Shown here: piece by piece, positions 3 to 7,582 of the stretch
Position numbering within the stretch: position 1 is the stretch's first letter
Layout of the letters: every line of letters begins with the position of its first letter
Origin: a virus
DNA: 64,000 nucleotides
IMG/VR virus record: IMGVR_UViG_3300045988_042432
Strand: one strand, 5' to 3'
Translations under genes and position numbers: made by a program
The notes under the pieces: generated by a model
What the model saw: only the letters and a program-made list of their open reading frames with translations
What the model was told of the DNA's origin: nothing
Database searches by the model: none

Positions 3-554
3 ATGATGGGAACTCATCCGCATGAGTGGTTCATGTTCCACGGTGCTATGTATGGCTATAAACAGGCTAATTACATGGCTCTTGAGAATTGGGTAAATGT
101 GTATGACGGTGATTTGGGAATAGCATTGTCTGACACATATACTTCTGAAGTGTTCATGAAGAACCTGTCTCGCAAGCAAGCTAAATTGTTTGACGGAGTA
201 AGATGTGACTCTGGCGATGAGTTTAAGTTCATAAACAGTATGATTGCTCGTTATAAAGAACTTGGAGTAGACCCTACTACTAAGACTATAGTATTCAGTA
301 ATGCTTTGGACTTTGACAAATGCCAGGACATTATGGAGTATTGTGGAAGTAGAATCAGGTGTTCGTTTGGAATAGGCACTAATCTCACTAATGATACTGG
401 GTTTAAGCCGGCTAATATAGTGATGAAGCTTATTAGCTGTCAAATGAATGCTAATCAACCTGTTTATGGATGCGTGAAGCTGTCTGATGATGCCGGTAAA
501 CATACTGGAGAAAATAAAGAAGTTAATGCTTGTTTAGTTGAATTAGGATTATGA
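3..554 (+). CDS. pncB: Nicotinate phosphoribosyltransferase (PncB/NAPRTase family), C-terminal 183 aa; 5-prime end lies outside the window
   Basis: The ORF runs off the left edge. GTHPHEW, VRCDSGD and SFGIGTNLTND match conserved PncB signatures (GT.AHEW / R.DSGD / GIGT.LT.D). The stop overlaps the next start (ATGA at 551-554). Confidence 0.8.
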   Translation: MMGTHPHEWFMFHGAMYGYKQANYMALENWVNVYDGDLGIALSDTYTSEVFMKNLSRKQAKLFDGVRCDSGDEFKFINSMIARYKELGVDPTTKTIVFSNALDFDKCQDIMEYCGSRIRCSFGIGTNLTNDTGFKPANIVMKLISCQMNANQPVYGCVKLSDDAGKHTGENKEVNACLVELGL

Positions 555-1513
555 GTGAACTAAATTATGAACACGTATTTAACGTATTAGTTGATAAAAC
601 AGCTGAATACGTTACTTCTAACAACCTTAAAGCAATGGTATTGGGCATCAGTGGAGGAATTGACTCCACTGTTGTCGCTGCTATCTGCCATGAGGTTAGT
701 AAGAAGACTGGTATTCCTCTTATAGGAAGAAGTCTTCCTATTAAGAATAAAAGTGATGAGTTCGCTACTTCTGTACATGTAGGAGAAGCCTTCTGTAATG
801 AATTTAGTGTTTACAGACTTGAACGTTCCTATCGTGCAGCTTTGTTTGATGCCTGTGCTGATGCAGGTGATGTCAATATGGCTAATTCTTACTATCTCGA
901 TGAACTAGAAGAAATGCCTAGTAGAACTCCTATTGCTAATGGTAATCTTCAAGCTAGGTGCAGAATGATGTATCTATATGATATAGCTAGTCGCCATAAA
1001 GGATTAGTAATGAGTACAGATAATCAAACTGAATATCAGCTTGGATTCTGGACTATTCATGGTGATGTAGGTGATTTTGACCCAATTCAAGACCTATGGA
1101 AGACAGAAGTTTATGAGTTAGCTAAGTGGATTAGTAATCGCTATAAAAACATTGAACACCACCATACTATAATGACTGGTGCTGGAAGTAAATCTGATGC
1201 TATAGAGTTATCTATAGCTCTTACTCCTACGGACGGTCTTGGCATTAGTAACAGTGACTTAGAGCAAATTGGAGCTAAGAGTTACGATGAGGTTGATGAT
1301 ATACTCTCTAGATATATTCCATTTAAGGAGTATCGACAGAAGCATGGAGAACCACTTCATCCACATGATGAAATAGCAGAATCTGATTGCTGGTCACAAT
1401 TATGTGTTAGGCATGGAGAAGATGTAGTCAATAAGGTTTGGAGCCGACATTTAGCTTCCGAATTTAAACGTAAGAAAGCTCCAATTTATATATCTAGGGA
1501 ATTATATGAATGA
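551..1513 (+). CDS. nadE: NH3-dependent NAD+ synthetase
   Basis: 320 aa, single-domain size. The PP-loop SGGIDS lies at 650-667 after the hydrophobic strand AMVLGI. NadE-like downstream blocks are present (MSTDNQTEYQLGFWTIHGD; TPTDGLG..SDLEQIG..YDEVDDIL). There is no glutaminase domain. Confidence 0.88.
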   Translation: MSELNYEHVFNVLVDKTAEYVTSNNLKAMVLGISGGIDSTVVAAICHEVSKKTGIPLIGRSLPIKNKSDEFATSVHVGEAFCNEFSVYRLERSYRAALFDACADAGDVNMANSYYLDELEEMPSRTPIANGNLQARCRMMYLYDIASRHKGLVMSTDNQTEYQLGFWTIHGDVGDFDPIQDLWKTEVYELAKWISNRYKNIEHHHTIMTGAGSKSDAIELSIALTPTDGLGISNSDLEQIGAKSYDEVDDILSRYIPFKEYRQKHGEPLHPHDEIAESDCWSQLCVRHGEDVVNKVWSRHLASEFKRKKAPIYISRELYE

Positions 1514-2609
1514 TTTAGAGAGAAGGGTTCACACAGCTATTAAAGAGTGTTATGATGTAGTCATAGCCCCAACTTACGGGTTAGGTTCTGCATTAGCCGC
1601 TGTATTTATGAAGATACATGGAAGAGCTCCACATAGGGCGACTTTTAGAACAGATTATTATGCAGTAGACTTACCAGAAGGACGAGAATGGTCAGATGCA
1701 GAATCTAAAGGAAAGATTAAATCTATTTCCGGAAGTAAATCTATAGACTATTGGGCAACTCAACACAACCTTTTAAAGTTGTTTCCAGATGCAGTTCATA
1801 TAAGGTGGGGAGATGATTACTTCTTATTTACTGATGAGTATATTATAGACCTTCAGGACCTAGAAATTCTAATGTTGAATACTGATGATATTCCAAAAGA
1901 AATAGTAGATTGCTTGGTATATAAAGAGGCTAAAGCTACTATGGAATACGTAACCTACAGTAATCAAGGATTCAGAACCACACTAATGAAAGTAAAAGAA
2001 CAAGATTGTGATATACAATCTAATTATAATGATGACTTACCACATCAACAAATAACCGATATGATAAATTCCAAGGAAAGTGGAATTGCCATACTACACG
2101 GAGTTCCTGGTTGCGGTAAGACTAGTTATATTAGAAAGCTAATAGCCGACAATCCAGGTAAGAAGTTTGTGTTCTTAGACGCTTCTACGTTTCAATACAT
2201 TGGGGATGCTTCATTTATTGAACTTCTTACTAATAAGAGAGATTCAGTGTTTGTAGTAGAAGACTGCGAGGACTTATTAGTAAGTAGGGACACTAAAGGA
2301 AATCACAGAATATCCTCTTTACTAAACCTGTCAGACGGTATACTTGGAGACTCTTTAAACCTTAAGTTCATATGTACCTTTAATGCTGATATTAGTAGTA
2401 TTGATAAAGCATTATTACGTAAAGGAAGATTGAAAGTTAAATATGAATTTGGTAAACTTACCAAAGATAAAGCTACTGCCTTAGCTGTTAAACTTGGTAA
2501 GACTGAACCTGTAACTGAAGACATGGCATTGTGTGATGTCTATAACTTAGGCACAGACAATGGTGGTGAACAAATTGAAAGTGATAGACCTAAAATTGGA
2601 TTTAGATGA
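1506..2609 (+). CDS. AAA+ ATPase (classic clade) with an unrecognised ~190-aa N-terminal domain
   Basis: Motifs seen: Walker A GVPGCGKT (2100-2123), Walker B VFVVEDCED, sensor-1-like FICTFN, and the Arg-finger region ALLRKGRL. The start overlaps the nadE stop and the stop overlaps the next start. Confidence 0.8.
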   Translation: MNDLERRVHTAIKECYDVVIAPTYGLGSALAAVFMKIHGRAPHRATFRTDYYAVDLPEGREWSDAESKGKIKSISGSKSIDYWATQHNLLKLFPDAVHIRWGDDYFLFTDEYIIDLQDLEILMLNTDDIPKEIVDCLVYKEAKATMEYVTYSNQGFRTTLMKVKEQDCDIQSNYNDDLPHQQITDMINSKESGIAILHGVPGCGKTSYIRKLIADNPGKKFVFLDASTFQYIGDASFIELLTNKRDSVFVVEDCEDLLVSRDTKGNHRISSLLNLSDGILGDSLNLKFICTFNADISSIDKALLRKGRLKVKYEFGKLTKDKATALAVKLGKTEPVTEDMALCDVYNLGTDNGGEQIESDRPKIGFR

Positions 2610-2863
2610 AAATGAAATTGTATTATGGAGCCTTGGCCTTGCTTTGGCTCCTTTCTAGTTGTACTCCCAGTGATAATGTAACTGACAACCATGACAAGGT
2701 TGGAACTTGTCGTAATGGTCATATCAGAGCTCTTACTTTGAATGGTCATACATATTACTGGCAAAATCATTGGTTTGCACATGCAGGAGACTGTAAGAAG
2801 TGTAAGCATGAACTTGATAGTATAGTTAAAGCAGCAGTTAAGGAGGCAATGCAATGCGAGTAG
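2606..2863 (+). CDS. Small secreted lipoprotein (85 aa), Cys/His-rich mature part
   Basis: MKMKLYYGALALLWLLSSC gives a basic n-region, a hydrophobic core and a lipobox-like LSS|C (Cys19 codon 2660-2662). The mature part carries CKKC and several His. It is coupled to both neighbours by overlapping codons. Confidence 0.6.
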   Translation: MKMKLYYGALALLWLLSSCTPSDNVTDNHDKVGTCRNGHIRALTLNGHTYYWQNHWFAHAGDCKKCKHELDSIVKAAVKEAMQCE

Positions 2864-3429
2864 GATTATTCTTTGGCTCATTTGACCCTCCCCATATCGG
2901 GCATGTAAATGTGGTAATGGGAGCCATTAACTCCAATCAGGTGGATAGAGTGTTAGTGATTCCTGCTTATCAAAACTTATGGAAGGAGAATAGCTCTAAA
3001 TTTTCATATAGGTATGCTATGAGTTGTATGCAATTCGACACTTTGCCTTTTGTACATGTAAGTGATGTAGAGAAAGACTTAGCAGGTCCTGCTTATCCCA
3101 GAGGTATACCTACATACGTTGTACTGGAGGAATTAAAGTCTAGAATGCCAGAGGATGAATTAGTAATTATTACTACTCCAGAAACCTATAAGGATATTCC
3201 TGAATGGCATAAAGGGTCTGTAATATTGTGTGACTATAAATTCCTCATGGTGGTAAGTGGAGAGGAGACCCCACAAGACCTTCCGGAGAATGTACATGTT
3301 GTATACGTTCCGCAAATAACAATATGCTCTACTTGCATTCGCAATAGAGTAAAGCTTGGAATATACATCCAGCCATTTGTAAGAGATACTGTAGAAGCAT
3401 TCATTGACCAATATAGATTATATGTATAA
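2854..3429 (+). CDS. nadD: Nicotinate/nicotinamide mononucleotide adenylyltransferase, NadD type
   Basis: 191 aa. The nucleotidyltransferase motif GSFDPPHIGH lies at 2875-2904. The C-terminal ISxT.IR-type motif is ICSTCIRNR. The motif style is NadD-like rather than NadM/NadR-like. Confidence 0.8.
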   Translation: MRVGLFFGSFDPPHIGHVNVVMGAINSNQVDRVLVIPAYQNLWKENSSKFSYRYAMSCMQFDTLPFVHVSDVEKDLAGPAYPRGIPTYVVLEELKSRMPEDELVIITTPETYKDIPEWHKGSVILCDYKFLMVVSGEETPQDLPENVHVVYVPQITICSTCIRNRVKLGIYIQPFVRDTVEAFIDQYRLYV

Positions 3430-3457: not shown

Positions 3458-4012
3458 ATGAAGAATTATCCTATTACAATTGAAACAGGTGAACATGCTG
3501 GGGAGACAGTCTGGGTTCACCGTAGTATAGCCGTTGCAGGATTTATATTTTGTAAAATTAACGATGAATGGTGTGTTCTTGCTAATCAAAGAGGTGAAGG
3601 AGCACCAGACTTTCAAGGATATTGGAACTGTCCTTGCGGCTATTTGGACTTTGATGAGACATTAGCAGAAGCTTGCTCTAGGGAAATCTACGAGGAAACT
3701 GGAGTTAAGATTGAACCTAGTGCTCTTTATATGTGTAGCGTTAACGATGACCCGAAAGACTCTAACAGACAGAATGTTACTATGAGGTTCATGGCTGTAG
3801 TAGACGAGAGTCATATTGGAATTTCTACTAATGCTATCAAAGGACAGCTAGGCGGAGAGGAGAATGAGGTAAAGGCTATCATGTGGGTTAAAATATCTGA
3901 CCTTGATAATTACCAGTGGGCGTTTAATCATAGACATCTCATTGAAGGCATCTTTTATACTTATGTAGATTATGAAGAAGTAGAAGGTTTAGACGATTTA
4001 TTTGCTGAATGA
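3458..4012 (+). CDS. Nudix hydrolase (substrate unknown; ADP-ribose/NAD-derived nucleotide is plausible from context)
   Basis: A perfect Nudix box G-x5-E-x7-REUxEExGU is present: GYLDFDETLAEACSREIYEETGV (3638-3706). Confidence 0.88.
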   Translation: MKNYPITIETGEHAGETVWVHRSIAVAGFIFCKINDEWCVLANQRGEGAPDFQGYWNCPCGYLDFDETLAEACSREIYEETGVKIEPSALYMCSVNDDPKDSNRQNVTMRFMAVVDESHIGISTNAIKGQLGGEENEVKAIMWVKISDLDNYQWAFNHRHLIEGIFYTYVDYEEVEGLDDLFAE

Positions 4013-4554
4013 CATACTTCATTAGTGGACACAGAGACATAACTCCTGAAGAATTTGAGAAGTTCTACGTTCCAGCAATTGTTGATGTGATAGATACATG
4101 CAACGATAATTACGATGACTGTGAATTTGTAGTCGGAGATTGTAGGGGTTGTGATGAAATGGCAGCTAATTTCATAGCAAACTACATTAAGGAGAATACA
4201 GATGATACAGAGTGTCCTCCATGTATTTTGTGCATTTATCATATGTTCTCTGAACCTAGGTTTAGAGTAGGCGTAGCTGGACAAGACGGTTGTTATCATG
4301 TTGACATGGTAGATGAGCTCAATGCAGACTTATGCGAGGATGATGACCCATATACCATAGATGATTGTCCTATTGTACATTATGTAGGTGGATTTGAGAC
4401 AGATAGAGACCGTGATTCTGCTATGACCAATGTTTCAAGTGAGGATATTGCCTTTATAAGAAGCAAATCTAAATGGGATTCTGGTACAGCAGAGAATATA
4501 TTACGTAGGCACACTATGAAATATCTAAACCCTAGTTTTTATGGACAACAGTAA
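4009..4554 (+). CDS. SLOG-superfamily (YspA/DUF2493-like) nucleotide-binding protein, putative
   Basis: The ordered elements ISGHRD, FVVGDCRGCDEMAANF, DRDSAMT..SEDIAFI and DSGTAENI follow the conserved layout of DUF2493/DprA-LOG-like Rossmannoid domains. There is a Cys-rich acidic insert. The call comes from remembered family consensus only. Confidence 0.5.
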   Translation: MTYFISGHRDITPEEFEKFYVPAIVDVIDTCNDNYDDCEFVVGDCRGCDEMAANFIANYIKENTDDTECPPCILCIYHMFSEPRFRVGVAGQDGCYHVDMVDELNADLCEDDDPYTIDDCPIVHYVGGFETDRDRDSAMTNVSSEDIAFIRSKSKWDSGTAENILRRHTMKYLNPSFYGQQ

Positions 4555-4786
4555 AGATTGGGGTGAGTTCCTGGAGGGCATTAAGGCTGCACAACAGGCA
4601 ACTGAAGCTCAAAAGGAAGCTAATGAGCAACATGAAAAGTATGAAAGATTGAGATTTGAATTTACATTAGCATTAATCAATAACAATGACCTCTTACATG
4701 AGAGGTCATTTAAAGAGATATGTCAATTAGGAGTTGAATTAACAGATGAATTTATGAAACATGAATCTGAAAAAGGGAAAGTTTAA
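4541..4786 (+). CDS. Hypothetical protein (81 aa, helical/coiled-coil composition)
   Basis: The ORF sits in the operon frame pattern and overlaps its neighbours. No motif was recognised. Confidence 0.5.
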   Translation: MDNSKDWGEFLEGIKAAQQATEAQKEANEQHEKYERLRFEFTLALINNNDLLHERSFKEICQLGVELTDEFMKHESEKGKV

Positions 4787-5498
4787 AATTGTTGAGGGAA
4801 CAAGAGTTAGAATGGTTTCTTCAAAAGATACTCATATAGTCGAAGGAGCTTACGGTACTGTAGTCAGTCCTGGTATAAGAGAGTCGGAAGTGCGTTGGGA
4901 TAGTATGTTAGCAATTAGAGCAGATTATAGATACAGAAATGAACTAGAAGATGCTCTCATCATTCCAGTTTATAATGACTTATTGGACCCTTCTGGAAAC
5001 TTCCAAATTTGGACTCCTGAACCTATTGCGCGAATATACCTTGACGATTGTATCAAGTATATAGGAGAGGATACAAAAGACCTCAAATATGGTGATTTGC
5101 TTTGTGTATATTCTATGACTTTATCAGAGCATTCATTGTATGCAATACAGTTAAGTAATTACAAACTACACAAATTGGACACCAGTGTCTGTGCATTAGA
5201 AGGAAAGGGATATGCTTTAGCTAAAGACACTAAGGTCAAAGTAGTCCTAGACTCCGCTTATACAGAAGTTGGACAAACTGGTAAAATTTATCGTACTGAT
5301 TACAGGTCAGCGCTGCCCTATGAAGTTATTATAGATAAGGGTGATTGTGTTTGGGTTGCTGGATGTACCATACAGAATGTTGATACTGAAGTGTACATAG
5401 AAGAGTATTCAGCAGATGTTGAGAATGAAGTATCACCAGACGAGGATATACTAGAGAACGGATTCTCCAGACAAGTAACATTTTATGAAAAGGATTAA
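4761..5498 (+). CDS. Hypothetical protein (245 aa), possibly three small beta-rich modules
   Basis: A long ORF co-oriented in the operon. It shows a weak three-fold recurrence of the pattern G..V.V...(x)G..G.V. No catalytic motif was recognised. Confidence 0.6.
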   Translation: MNLKKGKFKIVEGTRVRMVSSKDTHIVEGAYGTVVSPGIRESEVRWDSMLAIRADYRYRNELEDALIIPVYNDLLDPSGNFQIWTPEPIARIYLDDCIKYIGEDTKDLKYGDLLCVYSMTLSEHSLYAIQLSNYKLHKLDTSVCALEGKGYALAKDTKVKVVLDSAYTEVGQTGKIYRTDYRSALPYEVIIDKGDCVWVAGCTIQNVDTEVYIEEYSADVENEVSPDEDILENGFSRQVTFYEKD

Positions 5499-6390
5499 CA
5501 AATATTTATTTCTAGACGTAGACGGGGTTCTCAATAGTGTCTCATGGTACAGAGCAGAATGGAATAAGGACCATGTGTATCCTCAAGGTGACTTTGACCC
5601 TAAGTGTGTTGAAATTGTAAACAGAATAGTCAAAGAGACTGGCTGCAAGGTAGTAGTCAGCTCCTCTTGGAGAGCTGAAATTAATTTGCAATCAATCTTT
5701 GACAAAGCTGGTTTAAAGTTCAAGATACATAGTATTACTCCGTTTGGAGTCCATAGAGGTTGTGAAATAAGGGATTGGTTAGCATCCGAAACCGAACCTT
5801 ATGTTTATGCTATATTGGATGATGACAGAAGTATGCTTGCAGAACAGAGGAAGTACTTCATTAAGACTAACACAGTTACGGGTATTACTGATGAAGACGC
5901 AAGACATGTAATTAACATTTTAAATAGAAATGATATGTGGAATGATAAATTAAACTCCTTAATTATGGAGTCTATGAAGAATCACGACGCTGTTCGGACT
6001 ACAGTCCTCCGTGCAATTAAGACGGAATTTAGCAACTATGCAACTGCTAAGAATGCTAAACCTCTTGACAATGCTGCTGAAATAGCCATTATTAAGAAGT
6101 TACGTGACCAACGTATTGATAATGCCGAACAGTATCGTATGGCAGGTCGTCAGGATTTATATGATAATGAAATGGCAGAATCTCTTATCTTGAATGAGTT
6201 TCTGCCCGAGGTCCCTGATGATAAAGTACTTGCTTTAGGGTTAGTAGAAGTCTGTGCATTACAAGGATGTGAAGACGGGCCTAAGATTCCTAAGAGCAAA
6301 ATGGGAATCATTATCAAAGAGCTTAAAGCTATGTTCCCTGCCGCAGATGGTAAACAGATTGCTGATTTAGTAAAATCTTGTGTAGTATAA
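5485..6390 (+). CDS. HAD-superfamily phosphatase fused to a GatB/YqeY-type domain
   Basis: The N-terminal half carries HAD motifs: I FLDVDGVLNS, II VVVSSSWR, IV AILDDD, plus RGCEIRDWL. This pattern recalls the HAD clade linked to RNA-repair proteins. The C-terminal half (about aa 165-301) reads VLRAIKTEF..AEIAIIKKLRDQRIDNAEQY..GRQDL..E..ILNEFLP, which is YqeY/GatB C-terminal-domain-like. Confidence 0.65.
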   Translation: MKRINKYLFLDVDGVLNSVSWYRAEWNKDHVYPQGDFDPKCVEIVNRIVKETGCKVVVSSSWRAEINLQSIFDKAGLKFKIHSITPFGVHRGCEIRDWLASETEPYVYAILDDDRSMLAEQRKYFIKTNTVTGITDEDARHVINILNRNDMWNDKLNSLIMESMKNHDAVRTTVLRAIKTEFSNYATAKNAKPLDNAAEIAIIKKLRDQRIDNAEQYRMAGRQDLYDNEMAESLILNEFLPEVPDDKVLALGLVEVCALQGCEDGPKIPKSKMGIIIKELKAMFPAADGKQIADLVKSCVV

Positions 6391-7525: not shown

Positions 7526-7533
7526 ACAATAAT

Positions 7534-7582
7534 GGCCTGTATGGTGGAGTGTAATGCTCTACTGTACAGGCCATTTTTTTTT
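7534..7582 (+). terminator. Intrinsic terminator at the convergence point of the two arms
   Basis: The GGCCTGTA/TACAGGCC core (7534-7541 / 7565-7572) extends to a 16-bp stem. The three non-Watson-Crick positions are G-U pairs only in the + strand RNA. Nine T follow (7574-7582). The 8-bp core plus the T-rich complement of 7525-7533 could also act on the - strand transcript. Confidence 0.8.

Follow-up and report, generated by a model that had tools for sequence, protein, structure and literature searches.

The window analysed here, a stretch of 64,000 nucleotides of viral DNA (IMG/VR record IMGVR_UViG_3300045988_042432), carries directly downstream of a Nudix hydrolase gene an open reading frame (ORF) whose product, here termed the SLOG-like protein, belongs to a large, mostly phage-borne family without a database model. 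According to structure prediction, the product of this ORF (4009-4554) very probably has a SLOG-type Rossmann-like fold, and profile comparisons place its family as a separate SLOG family with DUF2493/YAcAr as the nearest branch. The SLOG-like protein probably handles a molecule derived from nicotinamide adenine dinucleotide (NAD), and its residues and gene partners make an ADP-ribose-type ligand reasonably likely; that it clears NAD-derived molecules in tandem with the hydrolase encoded upstream is proposed more tentatively. The first-pass annotation of this stretch, which had seen in the protein a possible sponge or processor of ADP-ribose-derived immune signals, is partly supported.

Family, fold and conserved residues

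The ORF, the motifs singled out in it by the first-pass annotation and the ATGA overlap of its start with the Nudix stop are all present: in the translation, ISGHRD occupies residues 5-10, FVVGDCRGCDEMAANF residues 40-55, DRDSAMT and SEDIAFI residues 134-140 and 143-149, respectively, and DSGTAENI residues 157-164. A word-indexed search yields 379 homologs and an exhaustive search 526 clusters at 50% identity; the ratio of nonsynonymous to synonymous substitution rates (dN/dS), taken against the two relatives divergent enough, is 0.18-0.20. The gene is under purifying selection, and because of these three results it can be regarded as real and as more than a chance reading frame. Three near-identical copies of the window's protein (P0012, P0015, and P0019, with 162, 146, and 132 aa) carry differing internal deletions that take out conserved motifs, which may be either errors of assembly or gene calling or true variation.

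Searches of the window protein against the models of Pfam, NCBIfam, and PADLOC give no match, PHROGs give one weak match (phrog_289), and a PDB-sequence profile search returns a designed repeat protein alone (E 0.89). Among deposited phage genomes, members can be found only in Lak megaphages of Prevotella (records MK250015-MK250029; 34-40% identical) and in the gut phage MT835470, where the protein is near-identical; a public virome annotation gives one family member the name 'YspA'. Bacterial members (loci L089-L159) are solitary genes of ~120 aa in filamentous cyanobacteria, Myxococcota, Hahella, Planctomycetes, and Chloroflexota, apart from a few multi-domain proteins of 404-756 aa, one of them with a GNAT domain. 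Twenty clusters (P0154 and 19 others) have in common a C-terminal extension of ~90 aa that is unknown to Pfam and follows the pattern WPRFxV...VPxPxELxDR; one such member lies on a 345-kb soil jumbo-phage contig (L180:5001-5684).

The AlphaFold2 model of the window protein, built from a 55-sequence alignment, has a predicted local distance difference test score (pLDDT) of 91.4 and alternates strands and helices in five strand-helix units. When this full-length model is compared with the PDB by Foldseek, nothing significant is found; DprA (4ljr and 5mll, template modelling (TM) scores of 0.33-0.37) and the SLOG domain of ThsA (7uxs, TM 0.25) are among the weak matches. The probable cause is an insert of ~40 aa between strands 3 and 4, acidic and Cys-containing, that is absent from most relatives (127-145 aa long). 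As the full-length model carries this insert, the compact member P0076 was modelled separately, giving the same alternating β/α arrangement of five strand-helix units with a pLDDT of 93.9. Its three best superpositions, over ~130 columns, all belong to the SLOG/LOG superfamily, namely the Moco carrier protein MCP (2iz5_B, TM 0.67, root-mean-square deviation (rmsd) 3.2 Å), TM1055 (1rcu_A, TM 0.65, rmsd 3.6 Å) and LOG (1ydh_B, TM 0.60, rmsd 4.4 Å), while the remaining PDB matches stay below TM 0.45. In the viral structure library BFVD, the significant matches are two uncharacterised giant-virus proteins, followed by viral proteins labelled 'YspA cpYpsA-related SLOG', DUF2493, or DprA-like at probabilities of 0.75-0.97. 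The prediction is thus of a three-layered, five-stranded α/β Rossmann-like domain that can be laid over solved structures of the SLOG superfamily, and the comparison with SLOG, DprA, and LOG structures that had been suggested as a check of the fold bears the assignment out, albeit at non-significant E-values.

The resemblance to SLOG/DUF2493 claimed by the first-pass annotation holds at the level of fold and motifs but not at that of the Pfam model. PF10686 (YAcAr/DUF2493) has a curated cut-off of 28.2 bits, which the family does not reach: the window protein gives no match, its ortholog in the nearest genome (G001) scores 12.6 bits, this being the sole PF10686 match in that genome, the best bacterial member scores 19.7 bits, and only two of 78 members reach E ~1e-3. 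For profile comparison, a filtered profile of 165 family sequences was aligned by hhalign, with shuffle controls, to sets collected from bacterial genomes (17 genuine PF10686, 30 LOG, and 30 DprA members); earlier, narrow alignments had given 22 columns. DUF2493 is the best of the three branches (z ~5): 98 columns align collinearly with E 0.0038, and the score of 23.3 (z 4.6-5.5) is reached by none of 300 shuffled or block-shuffled controls, whereas LOG (11.9, z 0.6) and DprA (PF02481; 14.7, z 0.5) are at noise level. Control comparisons between recognised families score 26.6 (DUF2493 with LOG) and 30.9 (LOG with DprA), so that the distance of the family to DUF2493 would be about that between recognised SLOG families. 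Because of these scores, and with LOG and DprA at noise, the family is best ranked on sequence profiles as a separate one nearest to DUF2493/YAcAr.

Like the PF10686 domain (YAcAr, formerly DUF2493; YspA, cpYpsA-related SLOG; PHROG 289), a small stand-alone domain of ~120-130 aa common in phages, the family shows four collinear blocks: G-x-R-D and G-x-x-G-x-D follow strands 1 and 2, respectively, R-[ND]-x-x-M is part of the helix behind strand 4, and F-x-G...G-T-x-x-N precedes the last helix. Unlike DUF2493 sequences, it has invariant H8, D44, H78-M-F-x-x-P-R84, D132, D136, D146, and R166-R167, and the window version has the extra insert.

Across 261 domains from phages and bacteria, S6, G7, H8, D44, G47, D49, H78, D132, R135, D136, T140, S143, D146, T160, N163, R166, and R167 are 94-100% conserved, and R84 also counts among the near-invariant polar set. 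LOG-type enzymes carry a PGGxGTxxE motif with a catalytic Glu; the matching block of the SLOG-like family is S-G-T-A-x-N, in which the position of the Glu is taken by an invariant Asn (N163, 100%). S6 and G7 (both 100%) and H8 (99%) come directly after strand 1 (residues 2-6), as befits a member of the SLOG superfamily. Likewise, the GxD/E signature of the YpsA-like SLOG clade, which binds substrate (PMC6459960), has a counterpart in G47-x-D49, ~100% conserved where the helix that follows strand 2 begins, and presumably at the same position as YpsA G53/E55, judging from sequence order rather than superposition. The TIR-DrHyd-SLOG clade is marked by conserved residues of its own in the loop or helix that follows strand 3 (PMC9503650); here, H78-M79-F80-x-x-P83-R84 is 90-95% conserved after strand 3 (residues 73-79), a likeness of position. 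The conserved polar residues are found at C-terminal strand ends or in the first turns of the next helices, where in the model they would line the usual ligand crest of the SLOG fold.

Coupling to hydrolase genes

Gene context was followed in 80 fetched viral loci (~86 viral loci in the neighbour tally) and in 71 bacterial loci. In 51 of the ~86 viral loci, the gene immediately upstream of the SLOG-like one is a Nudix gene. In crAss-like lineages whose SLOG-like protein is 40-99% identical, the Nudix gene is directly upstream at an almost fixed offset, ~-551 nt recurring in most crAss-like loci, and the adjacency also holds in a 36% relative; in a 43% relative the order is PncA-like, NAPRTase, NadE, NadD, Nudix, SLOG, YqeY. 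In the window, the ATGA overlap of the two genes suggests translational coupling. In an unrelated lineage, Nudix and the SLOG-like domain are fused in two diverged proteins, P0250 and P0296, which share 56% identity and whose Nudix half is no ortholog of the window Nudix. The tight coupling to the Nudix gene that the first-pass annotation had noticed is therefore confirmed, being kept from 99% to ~36% identity and turned into fusion in another lineage.

The occupant of the upstream slot varies among crAss-like phages and can be Nudix, NADAR (L058, E 4e-37), or a metallophosphoesterase (L038 and L044). In L058, the order is metallophosphoesterase, SIR2, NADAR (overlapping SLOG), SLOG, HAD_SAK_2, YqeY; in L038, metallophosphoesterase (overlapping SLOG), SLOG, one ORF, SIR2; in L044, metallophosphoesterase (overlapping SLOG), SLOG; and in L019, metallophosphoesterase, PncA-like, one ORF, SLOG, HAD-YqeY. 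Other fusions combine His_Phos_1 with SLOG (P0299) and SLOG with DUF1937 (P0307). The slot and fusion partners are all phosphoesterases, pyrophosphatases, or glycohydrolases on ribose-phosphate nucleotides, and the changing slot occupant and the Nudix fusions carry more weight as evidence than synteny counts within a clade. Downstream, HAD_SAK_2 and YqeY follow in nearly all crAss-like loci. In one lineage (L018-L024), the SLOG-like protein, HAD_SAK_2, and YqeY appear as a single ORF of 516 aa (P0269) on two contigs, which may be a true fusion or an effect of read-through or recoding.

Three relatives rated complete (G207, G208, and G209) keep the SLOG-like gene; because no NAD synthase or Nudix gene can be found anywhere in these genomes, the gene is not merely an accessory of the NAD operon. 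The idea that the NAD genes and the Nudix-SLOG pair form a two-pronged island against immune signals thus stands as far as a general link to NAD/ADP-ribose chemistry is concerned, but the association is not an obligatory one. The 176-kb crAss-like genome G208 holds the L058 block described above (L058:3214-8259), which in the absence of NAD synthase and Nudix resembles a module for ADP-ribose handling or RNA repair that does without NAD synthesis.

Twelve clusters combine KTSC (PF13619) with SLOG in proteins of ~240 aa; four of the loci (L043, L059, L061, and L067) are on phage contigs of 130-390 kb, and the KTSC-SLOG loci have no annotated NAD or ADP-ribose neighbours. The L043 gene is divergent from an adjoining ClpB-like double-AAA ATPase gene (848 aa), and in L059, L061, and L067 the upstream ORF is similar in size to that gene. 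A SLOG-Tad2-like fusion, P0160, has a C-terminal PF11195 domain at 53 bits, and its SLOG half is without several conserved residues. P0218 seemed to match over its full length in the search for Tad2 fusions, but beyond the SLOG core this match is noise. Fusions to Macro domains are absent from the family members scanned.

Ligand and role

The following scheme can be proposed. The SLOG-like protein would bind a soluble ADP-ribose-type nucleotide at its conserved crest and work in tandem with the hydrolase encoded directly upstream, Nudix here and NADAR or a metallophosphoesterase in relatives. It would open the ribosyl (N- or O-glycosidic) bond or present the ligand, the partner hydrolase would then cut the pyrophosphate or phosphate, and the pieces would feed the phage NAD+ salvage genes where these are present. 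The likeliest purpose would be to clear NAD-derived molecules of infection, i.e., host immune signals or NADase products. Within this scheme, the ~16 near-invariant His, Asp, Arg, and other polar residues would favour an enzyme rather than a sponge; an enzyme seems slightly the likelier form of action, a pure binder or sensor appreciably less so, and anything else is unlikely.

Several results weigh against this scheme. The Foldseek E-values of P0076 against the PDB are non-significant (0.14-0.5), the hhalign probability for DUF2493 is just 8.7%, and LOG-type chemistry cannot simply be assumed because the catalytic Glu position is an invariant Asn. The context signal comes almost wholly from one clade, the crAss-like phages, so the synteny counts are non-independent, and the three complete relatives mentioned above have neither NAD synthase nor Nudix. 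Annotated NAD or ADP-ribose neighbours are absent from megaphage-type loci, from the 345-kb soil jumbo phage and from phages of 115-167 kb; in L060, a metagenomic locus of megaphage size comparable to Lak, the scanned neighbours have no Pfam match. The 71 bacterial loci give no defence or NAD signal, their neighbours (RlmL, FTR1, PALP, lipases) being housekeeping-like, and the Tad2-like fusion does not recur, its single instance being on a contig of 1.9 kb. Finally, judged by sequence, a role in RNA repair with ADP-ribose by-products would suit the constant HAD_SAK_2/YqeY neighbours equally well.

In that alternative, which is rather unlikely, the SLOG-like protein would be an accessory of an NAD+-dependent RNA (tRNA) end-repair module, processing the by-product of 2'-phosphate removal by KptA-like or sirtuin enzymes (ADP-ribose cyclic phosphate, ADPR>P, or ADPR-1''-P) or acting on RNA. 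HAD_SAK_2 is a 'Swiss Army Knife RNA repair' phosphatase and YqeY is GatB-tail-like; both are constant downstream, and P0269 joins them to SLOG in one database ORF. In L058 and L038, a phage sirtuin and a metallophosphoesterase are also present, an Rnl2-type RNA ligase is present in all five crAss-like genomes tested, and the 12 KTSC-SLOG fusion clusters point the same way. Neighbourhoods of sirtuin, SAK-HAD, calcineurin-like, and Nudix genes have also been predicted to form an RNA-repair system, an NAD+-dependent RNA-end repair that yields ADPR>P (Iyer et al., PMC9503650). However, that scheme is itself a prediction, the RNA ligase gene is ~20 kb away, the nearest genome (G001) is without sirtuin and NADAR, and the tightest coupling, by overlapping codons and fusions, is to Nudix, NADAR, or metallophosphoesterase and not to the HAD/YqeY gene. 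Clearance of immune signals and RNA repair would both imply an ADP-ribose-type ligand.

A non-catalytic protein that would sequester signals of the cyclic ADP-ribose (cADPR) type in the manner of Tad1 and Tad2, or sense them like the SLOG domain of ThsA, is improbable. SLOG domains do include non-catalytic 3'cADPR sensors, and the weak fold match to ThsA, the fusion of one member to a Tad2-like domain and the Asn at the position of the LOG catalytic Glu would all be in keeping with binding alone. Yet the likeness to the ThsA sensor is weak (TM 0.25, and no PADLOC model matched at E <= 0.01), the Tad2-like link consists of the single short-contig fusion whose SLOG half has lost conserved residues, and no homology to Tad1 or Tad2 can be detected in the SLOG-like domain; the invariant His/Asp/Arg set is active-site-like, and together with the repeated fusion or coupling to hydrolases it suits a catalytic step better. 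The sponge considered by the first-pass annotation consequently finds no backing, in contrast to its general link to NAD/ADP-ribose chemistry, which is borne out. Very unlikely too is a reader of nucleic acids with a DprA-like grip on single-stranded DNA, which would help erasers such as NADAR to strip ADP-ribose from DNA or RNA bases and so counter DarT-type toxins. DprA chains are among the weak fold matches, the NADAR gene overlaps the SLOG-like gene in L058, and NADAR enzymes are reported to reverse guanine ADP-ribosylation (PMC11543638); but the hhalign comparison with DprA is noise, NADAR is the partner in one of ~86 loci, and the Nudix and metallophosphoesterase partners act on soluble pyrophosphates and phosphates rather than on DNA adducts. 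The same low probability is given to ordinary nucleotide metabolism with no role in immunity, e.g., a LOG-like phosphoribohydrolase that turns AMP or another nucleotide into ribose-5-phosphate for nucleotide or phosphoribosyl pyrophosphate (PRPP) supply: the closest solved folds are LOG-type enzymes, the gene stands among auxiliary metabolic genes and the bacterial members are solitary beside housekeeping genes, whereas the Glu of the LOG motif is replaced and the profile comparison with LOG, despite the best superpositions of the compact member being on LOG, MCP, and TM1055 (1ydh, 2iz5, and 1rcu), is at noise level.

Regarding known systems, the SLOG-like protein resembles the viral SLOG proteins surveyed by Iyer et al. 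(2022; PMC9503650), which are likewise stand-alone and accompanied by Nudix, NADAR, and NAD salvage genes. That survey describes the co-occurrence of Macro, NADAR, and Nudix domains with YpsA-like SLOG domains of viruses and predicts that the latter may sense or cleave cADPR-type signals, although they are experimentally uncharacterised; the anti-signal idea for phage SLOG proteins is thus already published as a prediction (PMC9503650). The survey makes no mention of crAss-like phages. New with respect to it are three observations: Nudix, NADAR, and metallophosphoesterase replace one another in a single slot, the gene persists where the NAD genes are missing, and fusions with Nudix and His-phosphatase occur. 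The SLOG domain of Thoeris ThsA, a 3'cADPR sensor (7uxs), belongs to the same superfamily and binds an ADP-ribose-derived ligand, but its fusion partner is a SIR2 effector and the protein serves host defence, whereas the SLOG-like protein pairs with a phage hydrolase. Tad2 (PF11195) has no homology to the SLOG-like domain and occurs only as the C-terminal add-on of P0160. NARP3 was considered as a match for the window operon and rejected, since it is a different, NadR-like system; the NARP3 paper mentions no SLOG protein. In the literature, no experimental work on any phage SLOG/DUF2493 protein was found.

A functional analogue of signal destruction, with an unrelated fold, is RyDEP, a phage glycosidase with a RyR domain, whose cleavage of 2'/3'cADPR supplies NAD+ synthesis; according to a 2026 preprint, no other mechanism of 2'/3'cADPR degradation is known (PMC13232231). 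The activity of RyDEP has been shown experimentally, whereas the SLOG-like protein is known from sequence and models. It can be speculated, with a low expectation of being right, that the latter is a second phage enzyme family after RyDEP that opens 2'/3'cADPR or His-ADPR and hands the linear product to an interchangeable Nudix, NADAR, or metallophosphoesterase. If true, crAss-like phages, which are abundant in the human gut, and megaphages would couple signal destruction to NAD+ rebuilding.

SLOG proteins are common among phages and are predicted to counter NAD-derived immune signalling, and RyDEP is the only enzyme family so far reported to degrade Thoeris signals. The SLOG-like family is a new, unmodelled one among the phage SLOG proteins of the NAD/ADP-ribose network; it spans 526 clusters, including crAss-like gut phages and Lak megaphages, and is missed by current domain libraries. 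The two-gene Nudix-SLOG cassette, which is also a natural fusion, offers a clean and compact experimental handle. If the ligand or substrate of the SLOG-like protein were identified, a whole SLOG branch would gain a function, and one could tell whether these abundant gut phages counter immunity based on ADP-ribose, carry out RNA repair, or do both.

The window and its phage

The window is 95% identical to the unannotated human-faecal phage record MT835470, it harbors giant minus-strand ORFs of up to 3254 aa, and its major head protein shows 22-24% identity to those of Crassvirales reference genomes; the phage is therefore a divergent crAss-like gut phage. Complete relatives have genomes of 170-182 kb.

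Table 1. Features around the SLOG-like gene in the window.
Feature	Position	Strand	Basis or remark
Nicotinate phosphoribosyltransferase (NAPRTase), C-terminal part, cut by window edge	3-554	+	PF04095 E 2e-37; TIGR01514
NAD+ synthase (NadE)	551-1513	+	PF02540 E 1.3e-37; TIGR00552 above cut-off
AAA ATPase, 367 aa	1506-2609	+	Pfam
Small 85-aa ORF	2606-2863	+	ORF call
NadD-like nicotinate-nucleotide adenylyltransferase	2854-3429	+	PF01467; NF000840 E 1e-26 and TIGR00482 E 7e-24, both below cut-offs
Nudix hydrolase, 184 aa	3458-4012	+	PF00293 E 2.3e-13
ATGA overlap of SLOG-like gene start with Nudix stop	4009-4012	+	ATG 4009-4011, TGA 4010-4012
Gene of predicted SLOG-fold protein, 181 aa	4009-4554	+	Homologues, AlphaFold2 model, fold matches, hhalign against DUF2493
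Lineage-specific structured insert, residues ~80-121	4246-4371	+	Alignment, secondary structure, pLDDT >90 over insert
81-aa ORF, function unassigned	4541-4786	+	Start overlaps SLOG-like gene end by 14 nt; conserved in closest lineage only
HAD_SAK_2 phosphatase fused to YqeY domain	5485-6390	+	PF18143 E 1.7e-27; PF09424 E 7e-22; synteny
Intrinsic-terminator-like hairpin, strong, 20-bp stem and T-run	7531-7575	+	Closes + strand gene block

From the window edge to 7525, the + strand genes (Table 1) are tightly packed with overlapping or abutting junctions and end at the hairpin, an arrangement that fits a single transcription unit. The best named NCBIfam matches of the window Nudix are the ADP-ribose pyrophosphatase domain of NadM-Nudix and the ADP-ribose-responsive NtrR, all far below cut-offs. 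Between the SLOG-like gene and the HAD_SAK_2-YqeY gene lie two ORFs of unassigned function. The AAA ATPase gene and the 85-aa ORF, which stand between nadE and the nadD-like gene (1506-2863), are confined to the closest lineages. The hairpin lies where the auxiliary block on the + strand converges with the giant-ORF block on the minus strand. Elsewhere among the loci, on a 209-kb phage contig, an IS605 OrfB/Cas12f-like TnpB gene (L004:3578-4801) is found, in a locus that otherwise matches L003, in place of a 253-aa gene of the latter.

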